From: Candidatus Omnitrophota bacterium | GTDB lineage: Bacteria > Omnitrophota > Gorgyraeia > Pluralincolimonadales > Pluralincolimonadaceae | Direction of reading: 5' to 3' | Assembly: GCA_903889135.1 (NCBI GenBank) | Contig: CAISWF010000170.1 | Span: forward strand, 1,638-65,637 | Length of the DNA stretch: 64,000 bases | Position numbers and translations under genes: made by a program | Notes under the pieces: generated by a model | Seen by the model: only the letters and a program-made list of their open reading frames with translations | Database searches by the model: none | What the model was told of the DNA's origin: nothing | In this document: positions 1-16,926 of the stretch, piece by piece | How the letters are laid out: every line of letters begins with the position of its first letter | Position numbering within the stretch: position 1 is the stretch's first letter

Positions 1-1196
1 AGAAAGCCGCCGCTAAAAAAAATAAGGTTGTCCTGGAGAGGCTGCTGAAAAACGGCCATTACAGGCTTTTGGTCGGCGGCGAACAGTATCTTATCACAGG
101 CGTCTGCTACCAGCCGGTACCTCCGGGGAATGACTATAACTACAACTGGTGGGGCGATTCGGCGAAACCGTGGCTGGTCGACGGACAGCTTATGAAAGAT
201 GCCGGCATAAATACGGTGCGGATCTATCAGCCGGGGGAGAACCCGAAAGAGGTCAAGCAGGTCATAAATGACCTTTTCCAGAAATTCGGCGTGCGCACGA
301 TCCTCGGCCACAACTTGGGGATATACGATGTTCCGCCCCCCAATTATGCCGATGAAAGTTACAGGCAGCTGCTGAAGGAGCAGGTGTTGAATACAGTAAA
401 GACCTATAAGGATGAACCCGGGATATTGATGTGGGTATTGGGCAACGAGAATGATTATAGTTTTGACGACTCGATAGCCGCCTGGGGATCTCCCGAGCTC
501 GATGCGATAGCCGATCCGAAAGATAGGGCGAACGCTAAAGCGAAGATATATTATTCTTTCGTAAATGACATCGCAAGGGAGATAAAAAAGACAGACCCGA
601 ACCATCCGGTCGCTATGGGAAACGGCGAAACCTTCTATCTTGAGATCGCAAAGCCGTTGACGCCTGATGTAGACATACTCGGGCTTATCTCTTACCGCGG
701 TATAAGTTTCGGCAATACCTGGGAACAGGCTGATAAGCGCCTCGGAAAGCCCATAGTGTTGATCGAGTTCGGTTGCGACAGGTTCAACGCCCTCACGAAG
801 AAGGAAGACGAGGACGACCAGGTCAAGTTCCTCGTATCCCAGTGGAAGGAGATACTCCGTAATACTTGCGGCATGACGGGCAAGGGGACCGTGCTGGGGG
901 GGTGTATATTCGAATGGAACGATGAATGGTGGAAACACGACCCGTCCAATCCCGCGGGCTGGTTTGTCCAGGACGAGGCTGCCGGCTGGGCGAACGGCTC
1001 CTATTATTTCGATATCGAGGCCGAAGGCCACATGAACATCAACGAGGAATGGTTCGGTATCATCGGGCAGAGACTAGAGAAAGATAACGGAGTAAACAAG
1101 AGGATACCCAAAAAAGCGTATTACGCGCTTAAAGAATTATGGTCGAAGGGCTGCTTGGCAGTGGAGCCGCCCAGGGTGGGCAAAAAACCTAACTGA
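1..1196 (+). CDS. Glycoside hydrolase, TIM-barrel (clan GH-A-like; GH5/GH2-type), 5'-truncated at the window edge
   Basis: The reading frame is open from nt 3 to the TGA at 1196 with no upstream stop, so the gene starts before the window. Motifs: NTVRIY, GNENDY (acid/base Glu in an NE context) and IFEWNDEWW (candidate nucleophile Glu). Confidence 0.55.
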   Translation, partial: KAAAKKNKVVLERLLKNGHYRLLVGGEQYLITGVCYQPVPPGNDYNYNWWGDSAKPWLVDGQLMKDAGINTVRIYQPGENPKEVKQVINDLFQKFGVRTILGHNLGIYDVPPPNYADESYRQLLKEQVLNTVKTYKDEPGILMWVLGNENDYSFDDSIAAWGSPELDAIADPKDRANAKAKIYYSFVNDIAREIKKTDPNHPVAMGNGETFYLEIAKPLTPDVDILGLISYRGISFGNTWEQADKRLGKPIVLIEFGCDRFNALTKKEDEDDQVKFLVSQWKEILRNTCGMTGKGTVLGGCIFEWNDEWWKHDPSNPAGWFVQDEAAGWANGSYYFDIEAEGHMNINEEWFGIIGQRLEKDNGVNKRIPKKAYYALKELWSKGCLAVEPPRVGKKPN

Positions 1197-1228: not shown

Positions 1229-2398
1229 TCAATCCCTTATGTGGGCGTCCGCGTATTGCGCTATCATCTCCGCGACTTTGGTGGGCGGGATGACCGAGAA
1301 GTAATGGTCGACGATGCAATGCGCTATCTCGTGGGCGAGGACGTTGGCTGAGACCTTCTCCTCGCTGGTAAAGAGGGTGTTTATTTTAAAGACGTAATAA
1401 GCTATGAACTTGTTGTCCTGGTTGAAGATCTCCACGTATACCCTGTCCAGGTCATTTTGCCCCTTGTAGATCCTGACGTTCAGCCGCAGGTCCTTAGGCC
1501 TCATATCAAGTATCTCCTGCACCTTGAAGAATATCAGGTCGAATTTATAGGCTATCTCATCCTTCGTATCATTCCCCGCTCGCACCGGTTTTTCCGTGAG
1601 GCCGAAGTCTATCTTGTATGTGTCTATCTTGTCGTTTACCGCCGCGAGGTCGACGCCGTCCTTAAAAAATACGGTGCAATAGAGGCTGTTTACGCTCGTC
1701 CAGTCGCTGCCGTCCGAAAACCTGTCGTCCGAAACGACGGTCGCTGAGGCGGTCGACGCGGCGAAGAGCAGGAGGAACAAAAATACGGGGGATATCCTGA
1801 AATAAGAGAGATTGTTCTTCACCTGCCCGATCTTTTTTTCGATATCGTCCAGTTTCTTCCCTATCTCACCTCCGGGTGCGTCTTTCGACCGCAGCAGGGA
1901 CCTTATACCTTTGACCTCTTCCTCCAGTTCCTTTATTTTGGCCTGCGAAGAGGAGAGGGGATTTTTCATGTTCTTGACCATGCCGTTTATTATATCGCTC
2001 AGGTCTTTAAACTCGTCATGCTCCCTTAAATGCACTTCTACGGTCAGGTTGCCCTTGCCTATCTCCGTAACGTCCTTTTCCAGGCGGTAGATGGGCCCGT
2101 AGATACGGTGTGATATATAAAGGAGTACCGCTATGGTCGCGAGGCTTACGAGCACGATCGCTATTATGCCGCTTGAGGCCAGGACCGGCAATATGTAGTC
2201 GGCGGTGCTCTTTACGACCAGCCTTAGGCCCTCGAAACTCGTCGTTAAGGTCTTATTTGTGAAAAGGAGGGATATAAAGCTCATTATGAGGCATGCCAAT
2301 ATCAGGAGGAGGCAGAATTTAAGCATGAAACTCGCCTGGAATTTTTTCTTTATGAAGTAATTCCTTCTCCTGTTCCTCTGGTCGGGAGCGTTTGTCAT
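1229..2398 (-). CDS. Membrane protein with two TM helices, a HAMP-like linker and a coiled coil, continuous with a third hydrophobic segment and a C-terminal HEXXH (HEIAH) metalloprotease-like domain; it may be two genes
   Basis: The N-terminus RNRRRNYFIKKK is followed by two hydrophobic helices, then the HAMP-like stretch GPIYRLEKDVTEIGKGNLTVEVHLREHDEFKDLSDIINGM and the coiled coil KIKELEEEVKGIRSLL. An internal signal-peptide-like segment (MKNNLSYFRISPVFLFLLLFAASTASA if translation starts at the in-frame GTG) is followed by a roughly 170-aa domain containing AHEIAHCIVDHYF. Confidence 0.5.
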   Translation of the reverse strand: MTNAPDQRNRRRNYFIKKKFQASFMLKFCLLLILACLIMSFISLLFTNKTLTTSFEGLRLVVKSTADYILPVLASSGIIAIVLVSLATIAVLLYISHRIYGPIYRLEKDVTEIGKGNLTVEVHLREHDEFKDLSDIINGMVKNMKNPLSSSQAKIKELEEEVKGIRSLLRSKDAPGGEIGKKLDDIEKKIGQVKNNLSYFRISPVFLFLLLFAASTASATVVSDDRFSDGSDWTSVNSLYCTVFFKDGVDLAAVNDKIDTYKIDFGLTEKPVRAGNDTKDEIAYKFDLIFFKVQEILDMRPKDLRLNVRIYKGQNDLDRVYVEIFNQDNKFIAYYVFKINTLFTSEEKVSANVLAHEIAHCIVDHYFSVIPPTKVAEMIAQYADAHIRD

Positions 2399-2904
2399 TT
2401 TATGTCTATCTTCTTAAGCACTTCTCTGTTAATGTCGATCTTCGTGTTCTTCTCGAGGTCGGCGATCCACGCCTTGATCATCCCGCTCGCTTTCTGGTTG
2501 CGGTCTTTTTCCGTCTCCGGTATCGAGGAGAGGATCTCTTCGGATCTCTTCTCTAAGAGCGACCGCAGGAGGCTCTGTTCCCAGAACCGCTCGACCATCT
2601 TCATGAATTCCGGGTCCCTGTCCAGGCCCTGGCGCCGGGCTTCCAGGAGCAGGACTTTCTTCTCTATTATTTCGCTAAGGAGCCTTTCCCTGGGGATTTT
2701 GTTGCGGTATTCGGGAGGATAGAGCGATAATTCTGAGAGAAAATCCTCCTTATATAAGGAATAATCGCCGATAACCGCGACTACCTCTTTTTTAGGGCTT
2801 TTTTCAGCGCAGCCGGCCGCGAAAAATACGGAACTCGCGACAAGTATTAAGGATATAAAATATCTCACATTCGTTATTATAAGGGCTTTACTTCCTTTTT
2901 GCAA
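2395..2904 (-). CDS. Lipoprotein with a SurA-N/PpiD-like periplasmic chaperone domain
   Basis: A signal peptide ends in the lipobox AAGC. The region YKEDFLSELSLYPPEYRNKIPRERLLSEIIEKKVLLLEARRQGLDRDPEF resembles a SurA N-terminal domain. There is a 4-nt ATGA overlap with the downstream gene on the - strand, indicating an operon. Confidence 0.5.
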   Translation of the reverse strand: MQKGSKALIITNVRYFISLILVASSVFFAAGCAEKSPKKEVVAVIGDYSLYKEDFLSELSLYPPEYRNKIPRERLLSEIIEKKVLLLEARRQGLDRDPEFMKMVERFWEQSLLRSLLEKRSEEILSSIPETEKDRNQKASGMIKAWIADLEKNTKIDINREVLKKIDIK

Positions 2905-2921
2905 TATGTTAATTTAATACT

Positions 2922-3704
2922 ATGAAATTTCCAATTCTTTTGGTGCTTTTTCCCGTTCTCCTCTTCTCCGTGCCGGTTTACGCCGAGTATAACACCGTCA
3001 CGAACAGGGATGAGCCGGTCAATACGTCTACCGAGCAAGAGGTGGCCTTGGGCGATTCCATCGCCAAGCAGATCGAGAAGCAATATAAAGTCTCCGAAGA
3101 CAAGCATATGCAGGAGCGCGTGGAACTTATCGGCAACAGGCTGGCCAAGGTATGCGACCGCAAGGACCTCATCTATCATTTCAAGGTGCTGGATATCAAC
3201 GATATCAACGCCGTCTCCCTTCCCGGCGGATGGGTGTATATCTTCAAAGGGCTTATAACCAAGTGCAAGAACGACGATGAGCTGGCCGGGGTAATCGCCC
3301 ATGAAATCGGGCACATCTGCGCCCGGCATGCGATCAAACAACAACAGACCAGTTCTATAATGAACATCGCGATGATAGCCGCCGCGCTGGCCGGCGGCGG
3401 GCAAGGCGCCCAGGCGACCAGCCTCGCCCTGACATCCCTTATGGCGGCCTATTCGAGGGAAGATGAGTTCGAGGCGGACAGGCGGGCCGTCATTTACACT
3501 AAAAAGGCCGGTTACGACCCGTATGCCCTGGTAACTTTTATGCAGACCATGCACGAAGCCGAGAAGTTCCAGGTAAGGCCCTATTCGTATTTCAGGTCCC
3601 ATCCCTACGAAGGGGAGAGGATCGGCAATATCAACCGCCAGATAAACGGTACCATGGATTTCAAGGGTTGGATAAATAAGCCGCTCGACAGGGACAAGTG
3701 GTGA
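2922..3704 (+). CDS. M48 family zinc metalloprotease (BepA/YfgC/LoiP-like), secreted
   Basis: A signal peptide is present. The HEXXH motif is HEIGH, with the downstream EFEADRRA glutamate motif typical of peptidase M48. The gene is transcribed divergently from the lipoprotein/HAMP/HEXXH operon, with start codons only 17 nt apart. Confidence 0.85.
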   Translation: MKFPILLVLFPVLLFSVPVYAEYNTVTNRDEPVNTSTEQEVALGDSIAKQIEKQYKVSEDKHMQERVELIGNRLAKVCDRKDLIYHFKVLDINDINAVSLPGGWVYIFKGLITKCKNDDELAGVIAHEIGHICARHAIKQQQTSSIMNIAMIAAALAGGGQGAQATSLALTSLMAAYSREDEFEADRRAVIYTKKAGYDPYALVTFMQTMHEAEKFQVRPYSYFRSHPYEGERIGNINRQINGTMDFKGWINKPLDRDKW

Positions 3705-3775: not shown

Positions 3776-3967
3776 ATGAAATGCGATACATGCGGACGCG
3801 ACGTGCCTGAGGTGAGAAGGGTGGTAGTCGCCCCGGGATACGACAGGGCGTTGGCCAAGCCGGTCTACAATTGCCCGGAATGTTACGATAAGAAAGAGAA
3901 GGCCAAGAAGTATAACGCCCCTGAAAACCCAAGTCCCGCCGGAAGTGCGGGGCAAGAGAAAAAATAG
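3776..3967 (+). CDS. Small zinc-ribbon protein (CxxC...CxxC)
   Basis: The 63-aa product reads MKCDTCGRD...YNCPECYDKKEK. A strong GGAGG RBS lies 7 nt upstream. It sits immediately upstream of thyX. Confidence 0.5.
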   Translation: MKCDTCGRDVPEVRRVVVAPGYDRALAKPVYNCPECYDKKEKAKKYNAPENPSPAGSAGQEKK

Positions 3968-3973
3968 CCTCTC

Positions 3974-4588
3974 ATGCCCAACAAAATAAACGTGCTGGAT
4001 AGCGGGTATGTCGCGCTCGTCGATTCAATGGGCGGGGACAAGGCGGTCATAGAAGGCGCCCGCCGTTGTTACATGAGCGAACCGCAGGGTGAGTCTGCGG
4101 ACTCAAAACTCATCCGCCATTTAATAGCTAAGGACCACGGTACGCCGTTCGAGCACGCCTATTTCAGGTTCGATGTCAAATGTCCGATATTCGTCGCGCG
4201 CCAGTGGATCCGCCACCGCATCGGCACGTATAATGAGATGTCGCTGCGCTATTGCCTGGCCAAAAGGGATTTCTATACGCCTGAAAACCTGTCAGGTGAG
4301 GCGCTGGAAATATACAAAAAGACCATCAACGGCGCGTTTGATGCCTATGAAGCGATCGTCGCTTCAGGCGTAAAGCGCGAACAGGCCCGCGGCGTCCTGC
4401 CCCTTTCCTTATATACTCTTTATTACTGGACCGTGAACGCACGGTCACTGATGAATTTCCTTAAGCTGCGCCTCGACAAGGCCGCGCAGCCGGAGATCCA
4501 GGAATACGCGAAAGCGCTCCTCGAGATATTCAGGGAGACGATGCCCGTGACCGCGAAGGCTTTCGAAGAAAAGGTGATGCCAAAGTAA
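3974..4588 (+). CDS. thyX: FAD-dependent thymidylate synthase ThyX
   Basis: The ThyX signature RHRX7S is present (WIRHRIGTYNEMSLRY), and the length of 204 aa is typical. Confidence 0.85.
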   Translation: MPNKINVLDSGYVALVDSMGGDKAVIEGARRCYMSEPQGESADSKLIRHLIAKDHGTPFEHAYFRFDVKCPIFVARQWIRHRIGTYNEMSLRYCLAKRDFYTPENLSGEALEIYKKTINGAFDAYEAIVASGVKREQARGVLPLSLYTLYYWTVNARSLMNFLKLRLDKAAQPEIQEYAKALLEIFRETMPVTAKAFEEKVMPK

Positions 4589-4592
4589 GTTA

Positions 4593-5231
4593 ATGGGATC
4601 CTCAGACCTGGCCAGCCCATCCCCGGAACAATTGATAGAAGGCTGCATAAAGAAGGATAAGCGTTCATGGGACATTTTCGTGGAACGCTACTCGAAAGTG
4701 GTATATTGGGCGATACGTGACAGGTTAAAAAGATTCGGTTATAATTTTGAAGACGAAGACATAAATGACATCCACCAGGATGTCTTTATCGCTTTATGGT
4801 CCGGCGATAAGCTCGCGCAGCTGAAGGAGAGGGATAAGGCCGCCGGATGGCTCGCGATGGTGGCCGGGAACGCTGCGATAGATTATTTCAGGAGGATGAA
4901 ACGGCAGTCCCCTCCTAATTCAATATCAATTTACCAGGAGATTTATAATAGCGGGGACGGCGAGGCGAGGACGCTCGAAGAGGTCCTGCCGTCCAAGGCC
5001 GCCGGGCCTGACATGGAAGCGCAATTGAACGATGCCCGTGAGATCCTGGAATCGGCCATCGAGAGTTTTAAGCCTAAGGAGAGGGCGGTCGTCAAACTCA
5101 ACCTCCTCCACGGGATGAAGCATGAAGAGATAGCGGATACGCTCAAAATCCCCGTAAATACCGTCTCTACGACGATAGCGCGGGCCAAGAAATACCTGAA
5201 AGAAAAGCTTGAAGGAAAGCGTCTATTATAG
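4593..5231 (+). CDS. ECF (sigma-24 family) RNA polymerase sigma factor
   Basis: Region 2 (DIHQDVFIALWSG) and region 4 HTH (EEIADTLKIPVNTVSTTIARAKKYL) of sigma-70 are recognisable. It starts 4 nt after the thyX stop. Confidence 0.85.
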   Translation: MGSSDLASPSPEQLIEGCIKKDKRSWDIFVERYSKVVYWAIRDRLKRFGYNFEDEDINDIHQDVFIALWSGDKLAQLKERDKAAGWLAMVAGNAAIDYFRRMKRQSPPNSISIYQEIYNSGDGEARTLEEVLPSKAAGPDMEAQLNDAREILESAIESFKPKERAVVKLNLLHGMKHEEIADTLKIPVNTVSTTIARAKKYLKEKLEGKRLL

Positions 5232-5232
5232 T

Positions 5233-5718
5233 ATGGAAAAGAACATGACGAAGTTACATGATGCGACAGCCGTAAGATGCCCGGACGAGGCCTCGCTGGC
5301 CGCCTTCCTCGGAGGAAAGCTCAGGGAGGCAGAGGCGCGAGCAATCGAAGAGCATATAGCCGGCTGCACCGTATGCCTCGAGAGCGTAAGGGCCGGTTAC
5401 CTGGGAGAGAAATTGCATAATGAAGGGGACCTGCCGGCATCGGATACGGAAATAATACGGAAGGCGAAAGGTATAGTGAAGATGGATTCCAGAAATAAGA
5501 ATATCCGGGCAAACCTGTGGCTGTTTGCGACAGTCGCGGCGTTCCTGTCGTCATTTGCCGCGCCGAAATATTTCGCGCAATTCCTGGTTGCGGCGCTGAT
5601 ACTCGGCCTTAAGTGGGTCTCAGAGAGCGAAAACGTACGTACCATCATATTAGCTCTTCGCCATAGTTCGCAGGAAACAGATAAAGGGGCCAAAGAAAAG
5701 ATCAACAACAGATTTTAA
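5233..5718 (+). CDS. Membrane anti-sigma factor with a zinc-binding ZAS motif (HxxxCxxC)
   Basis: EEHIAGCTVCLE matches the HxxxCxxC motif, and a single TM helix (LWLFATVAAFLSSFAAP) is present. It lies immediately after the ECF sigma gene. An alternative start at the ATG at 5209 would overlap the sigma gene. Confidence 0.65.
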   Translation: MEKNMTKLHDATAVRCPDEASLAAFLGGKLREAEARAIEEHIAGCTVCLESVRAGYLGEKLHNEGDLPASDTEIIRKAKGIVKMDSRNKNIRANLWLFATVAAFLSSFAAPKYFAQFLVAALILGLKWVSESENVRTIILALRHSSQETDKGAKEKINNRF

Positions 5719-15897: not shown

Positions 15898-16926
15898 ATG
15901 TTAAAATTGAGAGTAGTTGCTGTTTTTGCGGCCATCTTTACCGTCATAGCTCTTGCGGGTTGCAACGCGGCGAAGAAGCCGGAAGTGAGCGGGCCCGCGG
16001 CTTCAAGGACCGGGATCCCGGCCGATTCTTCCGCGGCTCATAAAAGCGGAAAGGTCGTAGCGGAGATTGGGAATGAGAAGATAACGCTCGATGAAGTCGA
16101 TGAGATGATGAAGACGGTCCCGGAGCAGTATCAGTCCGTGGCGCAGGCGCATAAGGATATGTTACTGGACAGCATGATCAACCAGAAGCTGCTTTATGCC
16201 GAAGCCTCCAAACAGAATTTCGATAAAGATCCGGACGTCCAGAAACAATTGGATGATACCAGGAAAGAGTTATTGATAAAGGCCTACCTGAAAAAAGAGA
16301 TAGAGGATACGGTCAAGGTAACGGATGACGACGCGAAGAAATACTACGAGGCGAATAAGGACAAGTTCAAGGAACCCGAGAAGATAAAGGTATCGCATAT
16401 ATTAGTGGACAACGAGGCCGAGGCCAAGGATATCCTGGTTAAACTCAAGGGCGGCGCCGATTTCGCGGCTCTCGCTAAAGAGAAATCGAAGGACCCGAGC
16501 AAGGATAAAGGCGGGGAACTCGGTTTACTGAGCAAAGGCCAGACGGTCCCCGAGTTCGAGCAGGCTGCGTTCGCGCTCCAGCCCGGACAGGTAAGTGATG
16601 TGGTAAAGACCCAGTTTGGTTACCACATCATAAAAGTGACCGAGAAGCAGCCGGAGAAGATATTGGCGTATGACGATGTAAAGGACCGGTTGAAGCAGAT
16701 GCTGCTCTCCGACAAACAGAGGGAGCGCTTTGAGGCCCTCCTCAAGGACCTGAGGGACAGGAATAAGGTCACGGTTTATAAAGACGTATTAACTCCCCCC
16801 CAGCCGAAGGCCGATCCCAATGCGGCGCAGCCTCAGGCAGGGACACCCGCAGCGGCTCCGGCAGTATCGGCAACACCTGCATCGACGATGCCGGCAGCGC
16901 CTGCGCCGGCGCAGCAGGGGAAGTAA
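15898..16926 (+). CDS. Parvulin-type peptidyl-prolyl isomerase lipoprotein (PrsA/SurA-like)
   Basis: The lipobox is LAGC. A SurA-N-like domain is followed by the parvulin PPIase core (KVSHILVDNEAEAKDILVKLKGGADFAALAKEKSKDPSKDKGGELGLLSKGQTVPEFEQAAF...FGYHIIKV). The C-terminus is rich in Pro, Ala and Gln. Confidence 0.8.
   Translation: MLKLRVVAVFAAIFTVIALAGCNAAKKPEVSGPAASRTGIPADSSAAHKSGKVVAEIGNEKITLDEVDEMMKTVPEQYQSVAQAHKDMLLDSMINQKLLYAEASKQNFDKDPDVQKQLDDTRKELLIKAYLKKEIEDTVKVTDDDAKKYYEANKDKFKEPEKIKVSHILVDNEAEAKDILVKLKGGADFAALAKEKSKDPSKDKGGELGLLSKGQTVPEFEQAAFALQPGQVSDVVKTQFGYHIIKVTEKQPEKILAYDDVKDRLKQMLLSDKQRERFEALLKDLRDRNKVTVYKDVLTPPQPKADPNAAQPQAGTPAAAPAVSATPASTMPAAPAPAQQGK

Follow-up and report, generated by a model that had tools for sequence, protein, structure and literature searches.

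A 64,000-nucleotide stretch of a Candidatus Omnitrophota genome (contig CAISWF010000170.1 of assembly GCA_903889135.1; hereafter, the window, that is, the whole stretch that was analyzed) encodes, at positions 1229..2398 of the minus strand, a 389-amino-acid (aa) protein in which a HAMP domain protein with two transmembrane (TM) segments and a coiled coil is joined in frame to a secreted minimal gluzincin domain containing a HEXXH motif. We interpret this fused protein, together with the chaperone lipoprotein encoded next to it, as an Omnitrophota-specific three-part envelope module that ancestrally consisted of three translationally coupled genes within exopolysaccharide (EPS) loci, became fused in the lineage of the window, and would be involved in HAMP-coupled proteolysis or maturation; we rate the chances of this interpretation as slightly better than even. 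A preliminary description of the locus, made from the nucleotide sequence, had delineated three open reading frames (ORFs), coding for the 389-aa protein, the lipoprotein and a divergently transcribed M48 peptidase, and the ORF list confirmed all three at the same coordinates. The order of elements proposed there for the 389-aa protein, TM1-TM2-HAMP-coiled coil-hydrophobic segment-HEIAH, is borne out by hydropathy, by HAMP matches at the family level and by the HEIAH motif at residues 356–360. So is the ATGA overlap of the lipoprotein and 389-aa genes at 2398–2395, which includes the start codon ATG of the latter (2398–2396) and the stop codon TGA of the former (2397–2395).

Fusion of the HAMP protein and peptidase genes

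Stop-to-stop translations of 92 sequence sets, comprising 91 loci (denoted here by L numbers) and the first 12 kb of the window, were scanned with hidden Markov models (HMMs) built from the lipoprotein, the HAMP module, the HEXXH domain and the M48 protein. Among the 84 informative loci, the HAMP module and the HEXXH domain are found in one open frame in 22, including the window, where both HMM matches lie in a single stop-to-stop segment, and in two adjacent frames in 62. The preliminary description had considered both one gene and two genes at this place, the latter to be expected if homologs consistently carry a stop codon between the HAMP and HEXXH parts. Such a stop is present in 62 of the 84 loci, so that two genes are the arrangement in most of the family, but is absent throughout the clade of the window (22 loci).

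The fused protein has 53 full-length homologs of 384–401 aa (51–90% identity, ~100% coverage), for which the named sources are metagenome-assembled genomes of Omnitrophota (Omnitrophica), with one record labeled Dehalococcoidales; the same search retrieved HAMP-only proteins of ~180–240 aa and one HEXXH-only protein of 221 aa with an N-terminal hydrophobic segment of its own. When the peptidase domains were placed in a neighbor-joining tree, all 17 unique fused sequences grouped into a single clade whose sister is the split locus L027, and therefore the fusion arose once. Fusion is the derived, single-clade state, and separate genes are the ancestral one. In the split loci, the first ATG of the peptidase gene lies a median of 8 nt from the stop codon of the HAMP gene, and overlaps of 1–8 nt are frequent among the pairs; to produce the fusion, a single lost stop codon would suffice.

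An exhaustive HMMER search with the peptidase domain yielded 804 cluster representatives at E ≤1e-3 and 594 at E ≤1e-10 (50%-identity clusters, nearly all from Omnitrophota). Among the best 150 representatives, one is fused (P0047, 395 aa) and the other 149 are ~90–265 aa long, mostly 170–265; the separate peptidases whose sequences were read carry cleavable-type signal peptides of their own. The 120 best matches of a word-indexed profile search with the alignment of the C-terminal domain included no fused protein of the 53, although these should have scored highest; the exhaustive search did recover the fused representative. Assembly GCA_001303645.1 (Omnitrophica WOR_2 SM23_29; loci L009 and L011) contains two paralogous copies of the M48 gene, the lipoprotein gene, the fused gene and the downstream carbohydrate-active cluster described below. 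The database protein P0061 (193 aa, beginning with LSFFKV...) results from an internal start miscalled within a fused gene.

It could be argued that the window nevertheless holds two genes, with the peptidase independently translated from an in-frame GTG at codon 193 (1820..1822, minus strand), the alternative start put forward in the preliminary description, as MKNNLSYFRISPVFL..., in which case read-through from the HAMP part would be irrelevant. The GTG is indeed there, the sequence that follows it is signal-peptide-like, and the family at large favors two genes. However, without a stop codon, translation of the upstream gene must yield the fused product; no Shine-Dalgarno-like sequence precedes the GTG when the sequence is read directly; and the codon is not conserved, being GTA in L006 (88% identical) and ATA in L008, L009 and L011, the last of which lacks any in-frame ATG, GTG or TTG from codon 170 to codon 215. 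We rejected the internal GTG as a gene start, and consider independent translation of the peptidase in the window highly improbable. Because the GTG is not conserved, the fused polypeptide is what this clade translates.

In essentially all of the ~70 loci for which the upstream sequence is long enough, the genes follow the order lipoprotein, HAMP protein, peptidase. Fusion of neighboring genes is commonly taken to indicate that their products interact functionally or physically, and the constant gene order combined with the fusion in one clade amounts to Rosetta-stone evidence for a shared function.

A minimal gluzincin of a new family

The predicted minimal gluzincin catalytic domain spans residues 225–389 of the fused protein (165 aa; 1232..1726, minus strand). 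Modeling of this region by AlphaFold2 (AF2) with a 120-sequence alignment gave a pLDDT of 93.8 and a pTM of 0.89. The predicted zinc-binding and catalytic motif HEIAH (H356, E357 and H360; 1319..1333, minus strand) is invariant in 120 sequences and maps to model helix 127–142 in the domain numbering. In the same numbering, H132, E133, H136, D140 and E153 are invariant, and Y158 and H162 at least nearly so, among the 120 family members. E153, that is, E377 of the full-length protein (1268..1270, minus strand), lies 21 residues past the first His on the ‘glutamate helix’ (model helix 149–161). In gluzincins (clan MA), the third zinc ligand is a Glu located on the next helix at that spacing from the first His, and, judging by its position, E377 would be this ligand.

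The preliminary description had called for searches of the C-terminal domain against sequence families and folds, which gave different outcomes. In the fold comparison with the AF2 domain model, the best matches were peptidases, namely, M30 lugdulysin (11.1), M9 collagenase G (9.6) and M1 aminopeptidase (9.6), with 8.7 for YbeY and 5.0–5.4 for minigluzincins; Foldseek retrieved ColH at 3.9e-4 and Vibrio collagenases with TM-scores of 0.5–0.55. By the model, the domain has a zincin fold with an intact HExxH...E site in the gluzincin arrangement, and it would hydrolyze peptide bonds in a zinc-dependent manner, as either an endo- or an exopeptidase. By sequence, the statement that the HEXXH domain matches no obvious well-known peptidase family held up. 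No Pfam or NCBIfam model reached its threshold with the window domain, its 120 relatives or ten distant relatives, the sub-threshold matches being limited to motif-level M48, SprT-like and Zn_peptidase_2. The window domain itself scored 12.1 bits against M48 (cut-off 20.3) and 11.9 against SprT-like (cut-off 25.6), and 59 of the 120 family members gave M48 matches at the motif level only, the best with E = 9e-4. Distant family members matched no curated peptidase family, the C-terminal half had no NCBIfam match, and the 120-sequence profile compared with PDB sequences produced only noise (MotB at E = 0.085). Given that no family model reaches its threshold, the domain represents a new family whose fold and clan are already known.

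The same lack of any peptidase family above threshold is what could be invoked for the domain not being a peptidase at all but another hydrolase with the zincin fold, for instance, a YbeY-like one, or a catalytically silent binding module. This appears very unlikely: neither the HExxH motif nor the Glu on the following helix varies among 120 sequences, and such strict conservation of catalytic residues argues against a pseudo-enzyme; the best fold matches are peptidases; and the protein is exported, so RNA would not be available to it as a substrate. The YbeY motif, HxxxHxxxxxH, differs from HExxH plus Glu. A match of the HEXXH domain to a characterized non-protease family, which would have undermined the peptidase assignment in the preliminary description, was not found.

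The junction between the two halves

Hydropathy analysis of the 389-aa protein delineates three apolar segments, residues 28–47, 68–96 and 202–223. The third, which the preliminary description took for a TM helix (TM3), looks like a signal peptide rather than a full-length TM helix in both the sequence and the model. In the window protein, the junction (residues 201–219, RISPVFLFLLLFAASTASA, then TVV; 1742..1798, minus strand) consists of ~10–13 apolar residues followed by ASA; signal peptidase I is predicted to cut between A219 and T220. A short h-region and then a small-x-small site (ASA, AYA, AHA, AQA and others) are found 17–22 residues past the YF[KR] motif at the end of the coiled coil in 51 of the 52 unique fused proteins. 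Apart from this pattern, the junction is among the least conserved parts of the protein. In the full-length AF2 model, it appears as a short helix (residues 204–214, pLDDT ~50) and a disordered linker (215–226). The orthologous position in the split relatives is occupied by an ordinary N-terminal signal peptide, such as MTKVKIVFVLLVCSLLFCNFIPSVRAQE in L003. Judging by these sequence features, signal peptidase I probably separates the two halves after A219 once the C-terminal domain has been exported; release of the enzyme into the periplasm is at least as likely as permanent tethering because the h-region and the AxA site are kept in all but one of the unique fused proteins.

In a permanently tethered sensor-protease, the third segment would be a TM anchor, and changes in the HAMP domain would pass through the coiled coil and TM3, switching the peptidase on or off. 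The continuous ORF is kept across the whole clade, selection has maintained the fusion over 51–90% identity, and the apolar run 202–223 reaches 22 residues if the small polar tail STASATVVS is counted. We nevertheless regard this architecture as possible but doubtful: the strongly hydrophobic core comprises just ~10–13 residues and is followed by the conserved AxA-type site, the segment is poorly conserved save for the cleavage-site pattern, the model gives it a short low-confidence helix and 12 disordered residues, and in the split relatives the orthologous segment is the signal peptide of a separate protein. Tethering and the favored release of the peptidase part ways only at the step of precursor insertion and cleavage. 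From the signal-responsive, membrane-tethered metalloprotease envisaged in the preliminary description, the metalloprotease survives, with its zincin fold, HExxH...E site and a continuous ORF conserved in 53 clusters and 22 loci; the permanent tether becomes doubtful, as the junction retains the h-region and the AxA site.

The HAMP protein

All parts of the N-terminal half are encoded on the minus strand. The predicted cytoplasmic N-terminus (residues 1–27, 2318..2398), with the conserved basic motif RRRNYFIKKKFQ, is positively charged (net +6), consistent with an N-terminus that stays inside and a C-terminal domain that is exported. It is followed by TM1 (residues 28–47, 2258..2317; supported by hydropathy and model helix 18–47), a short periplasmic loop (residues 48–67, 2198..2257) predicted to form a β-hairpin (model strands 51–56 and 59–64), TM2 (residues 68–96, 2111..2197), for which hydropathy agrees with a model helix, 65–114, that runs on into the HAMP domain, the HAMP domain proper (residues 96–144, 1967..2113), and a cytoplasmic coiled-coil hairpin (residues 145–199, 1802..1966; model helices 131–171 and 177–199) that ends in the motif L-x-[YF]-F-[KR]. 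The stand-alone HAMP homologs terminate at this motif (YFKV or FFKVD).

The HAMP domain of the window protein alone scores below the cut-off of PF00672 (20.1–21 bits against 25; E = 8e-4), but 71 of the 73 family members match this model, the best at E = 5e-11. The family profile compared with the PDB retrieves the HAMP region of Tsr at 1.9e-10, along with the HAMP domains of HtrII and Af1503. Across the 73 family members, conservation clusters in three places, the N-terminal basic motif (R11, Y14, I16, F20 and Q21, invariant or nearly so), the 20-residue periplasmic hairpin (T52, T53, F55, R59, L60 and T65, likewise, with P71 beyond it also conserved) and the HAMP domain (P102 and E107, nearly invariant). 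The coiled coil is poorly conserved save for its end motif. Because the hairpin is so highly conserved and the protein is always encoded beside a secreted enzyme, and sometimes fused to it, the sequence data suggest that this short hairpin is a docking or control site for the neighboring enzyme.

In Pfam and NCBIfam scans, the HAMP domain is followed only by the coiled-coil hairpin of ~55 residues, with no methyl-accepting chemotaxis protein (MCP) signaling domain, kinase, cyclase or PilZ domain. Some full-length homologs are entered in databases as ‘HAMP domain-containing protein’. The name ‘methyl-accepting chemotaxis protein’ that some databases give to homologs, P0004 and P0058 among them, was accordingly rejected: there is no MCPsignal match, and the alignment with Tsr covers TM2, the HAMP domain and the start of the coiled coil alone. 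P0058 (L092, 6001–6687, from the PVC-group bacterium GCA_024231215.1) is a distant paralog of the HAMP module, with 27% identity and a longer periplasmic loop. It is encoded between gidA (mnmG) and parA-parB, beside the origin region with dnaA, rpmH, rnpA and yidC, and no peptidase or chaperone gene is nearby. Weaker matches to the HAMP module HMM (‘HAMPCC’) downstream in split loci were discarded as a second module: in L044, the one locus inspected, the match is due to the HAMP domain of a conventional histidine kinase of 887 aa.

The chaperone lipoprotein

The lipoprotein gene occupies 2395..2868 on the minus strand (157 aa from GTG 2868), with the frame open back to TTG 2904 (2395–2904, 169 aa). 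Its assignment as SurA-N-like in the preliminary description is upheld at the family level: the window protein matches SurA_N_3 (PF13624) weakly (E = 0.008–0.016, 15.4–16.5 bits against a cut-off of 27.2), but all 74 family members match this model, the best at E = 6e-12, and the family profile retrieves the Helicobacter peptidyl-prolyl isomerase (PPIase)/chaperone HP0175 at 8e-10. In the latter alignment, the N-terminal helices and the C-terminal helix are matched and the parvulin domain is skipped. A rotamase domain is retained in 4 of the 74 members and is not present in the window protein, for which the match to the EpsD model TIGR02925 is also far below the cut-off (14.2 bits against 108.9). 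By these comparisons, the lipoprotein is a chaperone core of the PrsA/SurA/HP0175 type that has lost the isomerase domain; in the absence of the parvulin domain, it can be a holdase or an adaptor but not an isomerase. The lipobox, ...VFFAAG-C in the window protein, has G19 and C20 conserved in ≥90% of the 74 sequences, and the protein is predicted to be lipidated as a bacterial lipoprotein.

The start of this gene is probably GTG 2868, which gives MRYFISLILVASSVFFAAGC, because the homologs begin at the equivalent position and TTG 2904 is the -35 hexamer of a promoter-like match; TTG 2904 was rejected as the start on the same grounds. This match, the best in the region (TTGCAA, 17 nt, TATAAT; 2876..2904, minus strand), would serve the lipoprotein/HAMP-peptidase operon and agrees with the consensus at 10 of 12 positions, an agreement that is not by itself proof of function. 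A transcript predicted from this site would start at about GTG 2868, which means that the lipoprotein mRNA may have hardly any leader. The 17-nt spacing between the lipoprotein and M48 starts, as given in the preliminary description, depends on TTG 2904; with GTG 2868, the gap to the M48 ATG is 53 nt.

Genomic neighborhoods of the split and fused modules

In the split relatives, the three genes are normally part of a Wzy-type EPS locus. In the commonest, although not universal, neighborhood, the triad is preceded by a family 4 glycosyltransferase (GT4), a tetratricopeptide repeat (TPR)/CBM60 protein, Wzy_C and the priming transferase, in this order, and is followed by a secreted protein, an EpsL-like barrel, an OPX exporter and a Wzz tyrosine kinase. 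NCBIfam matches above cut-off in these loci include the priming transferase (TIGR03025, 431.6 bits against 295.55) and the tyrosine autokinase (TIGR01007, 197.2 bits against 108.05), and L001, L003 and many others have Pfam matches to Wzy_C, Poly_export and Wzz. Below cut-off, there are resemblances to EpsE/EpsY for the OPX gene, to EpsL for the barrel gene and to EpsD for the lipoprotein gene. Membership of these loci in the exosortase/PEP-CTERM class was considered and discarded, given that the resemblances (PrsT, PEP_O_lig_1, EpsL and EpsD) are all sub-threshold; no exosortase gene turned up, although no search was aimed at one. The gene right after the peptidase is almost always one for a secreted protein, either an unannotated ‘x222’ protein (222–484 aa) or a FecR-domain protein (243–1156 aa); examples are found at L003 7428–8096, L032 10577–12031, L001 6764–7495 and L027 5289–8759. 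The FecR-domain proteins are Lsa33/LipL45-like, and the one in L027 has TSP3 repeats. These secreted proteins are candidates for substrates or partners of the module.

The fused clade has a different neighborhood. The M48 gene of the window (2922..3704, plus strand) encodes a secreted protein of 260 aa with a signal peptide, a HEIGH motif and a clear match to PF01435 (112.7 bits against a cut-off of 20.3), so the divergent M48 peptidase of the preliminary description stands. Its best PDB match is the stand-alone Geobacter M48 protein 3c37 (6.7e-31), with the BepA protease domain at ~1e-21. It is a BepA/LoiP-like catalytic domain but not BepA: the equivalog model NF052400 scores 122.6 bits against a cut-off of 570, over profile positions 42–252 of 483, and there is no TPR in the 260 aa; the LoiP equivalog cut-off is not reached either. 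An M48 gene is located divergently upstream of the module in all 20 fused-clade loci with enough flanking sequence, directly adjacent in most and ~1.2–1.3 kb away in four (with one gene of the major facilitator superfamily in between in L009). The M48 gene of L009 (5471–6250) was missed by the source annotation. The divergent metalloprotease cluster of the preliminary description is thus real in the fused clade but, in scans with the M48 HMM, confined to it rather than a general property of the module. The association with Wzy-type EPS genes is deeper and wider than the M48 pairing, and was beyond the view of the preliminary description.

On the other side, convergent with the fused gene, this clade has a cluster encoding a GH5/GH72-like membrane protein (GH, glycoside hydrolase), 1–4 tandem secreted proteins resembling carbohydrate-binding modules (CBM; ~200 aa, no Pfam match, ending in ...IYYE), a GH2_C-like protein (~650 aa) and a CBM9/CBM11 protein (~1150 aa). 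The GH/CBM cluster spans 9195–14502 in L006, 11627–17170 in L009 and 5695–13211 in L011; the window holds only its first gene (3..1196, plus strand), a GH5/GH72-like membrane-anchored glycosidase-like gene with weak GH72 and GH2_C matches, cut by the left end of the window (the homolog in L006 is 457 aa long). GH5-like and GH2_C-like genes are present in 17 of the 22 fused loci, and genes for an extracytoplasmic function (ECF) sigma factor (11 loci) and ThyX (10 loci) are often near the module.

These neighborhoods bear on a different reading of the module, as an outer-membrane protein quality-control unit in which the SurA-like lipoprotein would cooperate with the M48 peptidase and the gluzincin on β-barrel or OPX export proteins and the HAMP protein would be just an anchor. 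SurA and BepA act at the β-barrel assembly machinery (BAM) complex, where BepA docks via its TPR domain. In keeping with such a unit, the lipoprotein is SurA/HP0175-like, the M48 protein resembles the BepA protease domain and is constantly adjacent in the fused clade, and the triad of the split loci lies directly upstream of the EpsL-like barrel and OPX genes. We nonetheless judge it clearly unlikely, because the M48 gene was not found in 62 of 62 split loci, the M48 protein has no TPR and falls far short of the BepA equivalog score, no outer-membrane protein gene is near the module in the window, and the conservation of the HAMP domain would be unexplained if the protein were a mere anchor.

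Proposed function of the module and its significance

The scenario that we favor can be outlined as follows. The ancestral state would be three translationally coupled genes, usually located between the priming glycosyltransferase and the outer-membrane export genes of Wzy/Wzc/OPX-type loci. In the lineage of the window, loss of a stop codon would have joined the HAMP and peptidase genes through the signal peptide of the peptidase, and the fused module would then have come to lie beside the periplasmic M48 peptidase and the GH/CBM cluster rather than EPS genes. The precursor would insert N-in, with the internal signal peptide exporting the C-terminal domain, and signal peptidase I, by cutting after A219, would release the zinc peptidase into the periplasm, free or loosely docked, in a 1:1 ratio to the HAMP protein. 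Via its periplasmic hairpin, the latter may dock or gate the peptidase and so link a cue from the cytoplasm or the membrane to extracytoplasmic proteolysis, much as LapD does for LapG. The chaperone lipoprotein may hold or present substrates; these would be proteins of the envelope or secreted proteins connected with the export or processing of polysaccharide. The function would thus be HAMP-coupled periplasmic proteolysis or maturation. LapD-LapG of Pseudomonas fluorescens provides the precedent for a HAMP receptor that controls a periplasmic protease (PMC3032553, PMC3032545).

Several observations weigh against this scenario. The HAMP protein has no recognizable input or output domain. No EPS genes were detected within 10 kb of the fused-clade modules, nor in the 64-kb window, and the EPS link may not apply to the window's own locus. 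None of the 62 split loci yielded an M48 gene, although the HMM derives from three close sequences and could miss a divergent M48. Cleavage is predicted by an h-region rule that is heuristic, and the substrates, metal binding, catalysis, cleavage at the junction and contact between the HAMP protein and the peptidase are all points that we infer.

Taken singly, the parts (a HAMP protein, a gluzincin, a SurA-like chaperone and an M48 peptidase) are all of known kinds; what appears to be new is the peptidase family, the invariant three-gene module, its placement in EPS loci and the clade-specific fusion through a signal peptide. Our literature searches found no paper describing the module, with literature coverage that is incomplete and hence does not prove absence. 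More speculatively, and in our view possible rather than probable, the triad could be an unrecognized transmembrane signaling device in which a HAMP protein without a cytoplasmic enzymatic output has as its output an extracytoplasmic zinc peptidase, docked on the hairpin or, in the fused clade, produced as one precursor with an internal cleavable signal peptide, with the parvulin-less chaperone as substrate adaptor, the whole being a dedicated regulator or maturase of EPS export throughout the phylum.

The peptidase family, with its 804 cluster representatives, is missing from Pfam and NCBIfam, and its members are labeled ‘hypothetical’ or, wrongly, ‘methyl-accepting chemotaxis protein’; the present analysis corrects errors of gene start and naming at the locus. 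The module would be a case of HAMP coupled to an extracytoplasmic protease instead of a kinase, a cyclase or a chemoreceptor tip. Omnitrophota are ultra-small, largely uncultured bacteria for which cell-surface biology is poorly known, and the usual placement of the module in EPS loci suggests that capsule or slime export in this phylum includes an accessory step that has yet to be studied.

Other features of the window

The remaining 52 kb of the window were searched for a second triad or an EPS locus, and the sole find was another SurA_N-like gene (15898–16926, plus strand). It encodes a 342-aa protein with a weak match to the lipoprotein HMM (1e-12), probably a conventional PPIase of the SurA/PpiD/PrsA type. 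Downstream of the M48 gene, a small zinc-ribbon ORF, thyX, an ECF sigma factor gene and a zf-HC2 anti-sigma factor gene form a run (3776–5718, plus strand) that is syntenic with the M48/triad region in many genomes of the fused clade (L006, L011, L013, L014 and L020–L025).

The 32-nt gap between the convergent GH5-like and fused genes (1197–1228) contains an inverted repeat of 9–10 bp (TCCCTTAAC...GTTAAGGGA), which may be a bidirectional terminator hairpin; it folds weakly better than shuffled sequences (z -1.9) and has no T-run. A 241-aa ORF antisense to the M48 gene (2877–3602, minus strand) is Gly/Arg/Pro-rich and of low complexity, and is almost certainly a shadow ORF rather than a gene.

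Comparison with known systems

The closest parallel in regulatory logic is LapD-LapG, where, likewise, an inner-membrane HAMP protein is coupled to a periplasmic protease, cell-surface or biofilm material is controlled, and the two genes are neighbors (PMC3032553, PMC3032545). LapD, however, has a large periplasmic output domain and a cytoplasmic cyclic di-GMP receptor consisting of degenerate GGDEF and EAL domains, in contrast to the 20-residue hairpin outside and the coiled coil inside of the HAMP protein described here; LapG is a cysteine protease rather than a zincin; and the Lap system involves neither a fusion nor a chaperone partner. No LapD- or LapG-type domains were detected in Pfam and NCBIfam scans of the window proteins and the HAMP family, and we take the resemblance to be one of logic only, with no homology beyond the HAMP domain.

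The lipoprotein shares the N-terminal helical chaperone arm and the C-terminal helix with the foldases SurA, PrsA, HP0175 and PEB4 (Cbf2), and with PrsA also the lipid anchor. The EpsD PPIase of exosortase-type EPS loci (TIGR02925) is similarly placed, in an EPS locus just after the priming transferase, although the matches to TIGR02925 are weak. What sets the lipoprotein apart from all of these is the absence of the parvulin (PPIase) domain in 70 of the 74 family members, the window protein included. The M48 protein has in common with BepA, LoiP and YcaL the catalytic domain with HExxH and the signal peptide, and hence would be periplasmic like them, but it lacks the TPR domain of BepA and the lipobox of LoiP and YcaL.

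A membrane protein and an exported domain made as one ORF, with a cleavable internal signal sequence in between, are known from the Bradyrhizobium FbcH cytochrome b-c1 precursor. The proteins are unrelated, and cleavage in the HAMP-peptidase fusion is so far predicted only. Among the clan MA gluzincins, the minigluzincins (proabylysin, projannalysin and selecase) have a comparably small catalytic unit. The domain described here is at most 16% identical to the M30 (hyicolysin/lugdulysin), M9 and M1 enzymes, with short alignments to minigluzincins reaching 19%. It differs from the known gluzincins in its own motifs, LDMxP and HExxHxxxD.YF..PP.K..E...Y...H, in stopping 12 residues past the Glu helix, and in being always encoded with a HAMP protein and a chaperone. 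Finally, BlaR1 and MecR1 (M56) also combine a membrane signaling protein and a small gluzincin domain in one polypeptide, but in the opposite topology, with the zincin in the cytoplasm and the sensor outside, and have neither a HAMP domain nor a signal-peptide junction such as the one through which the two halves of the Omnitrophota protein are joined.

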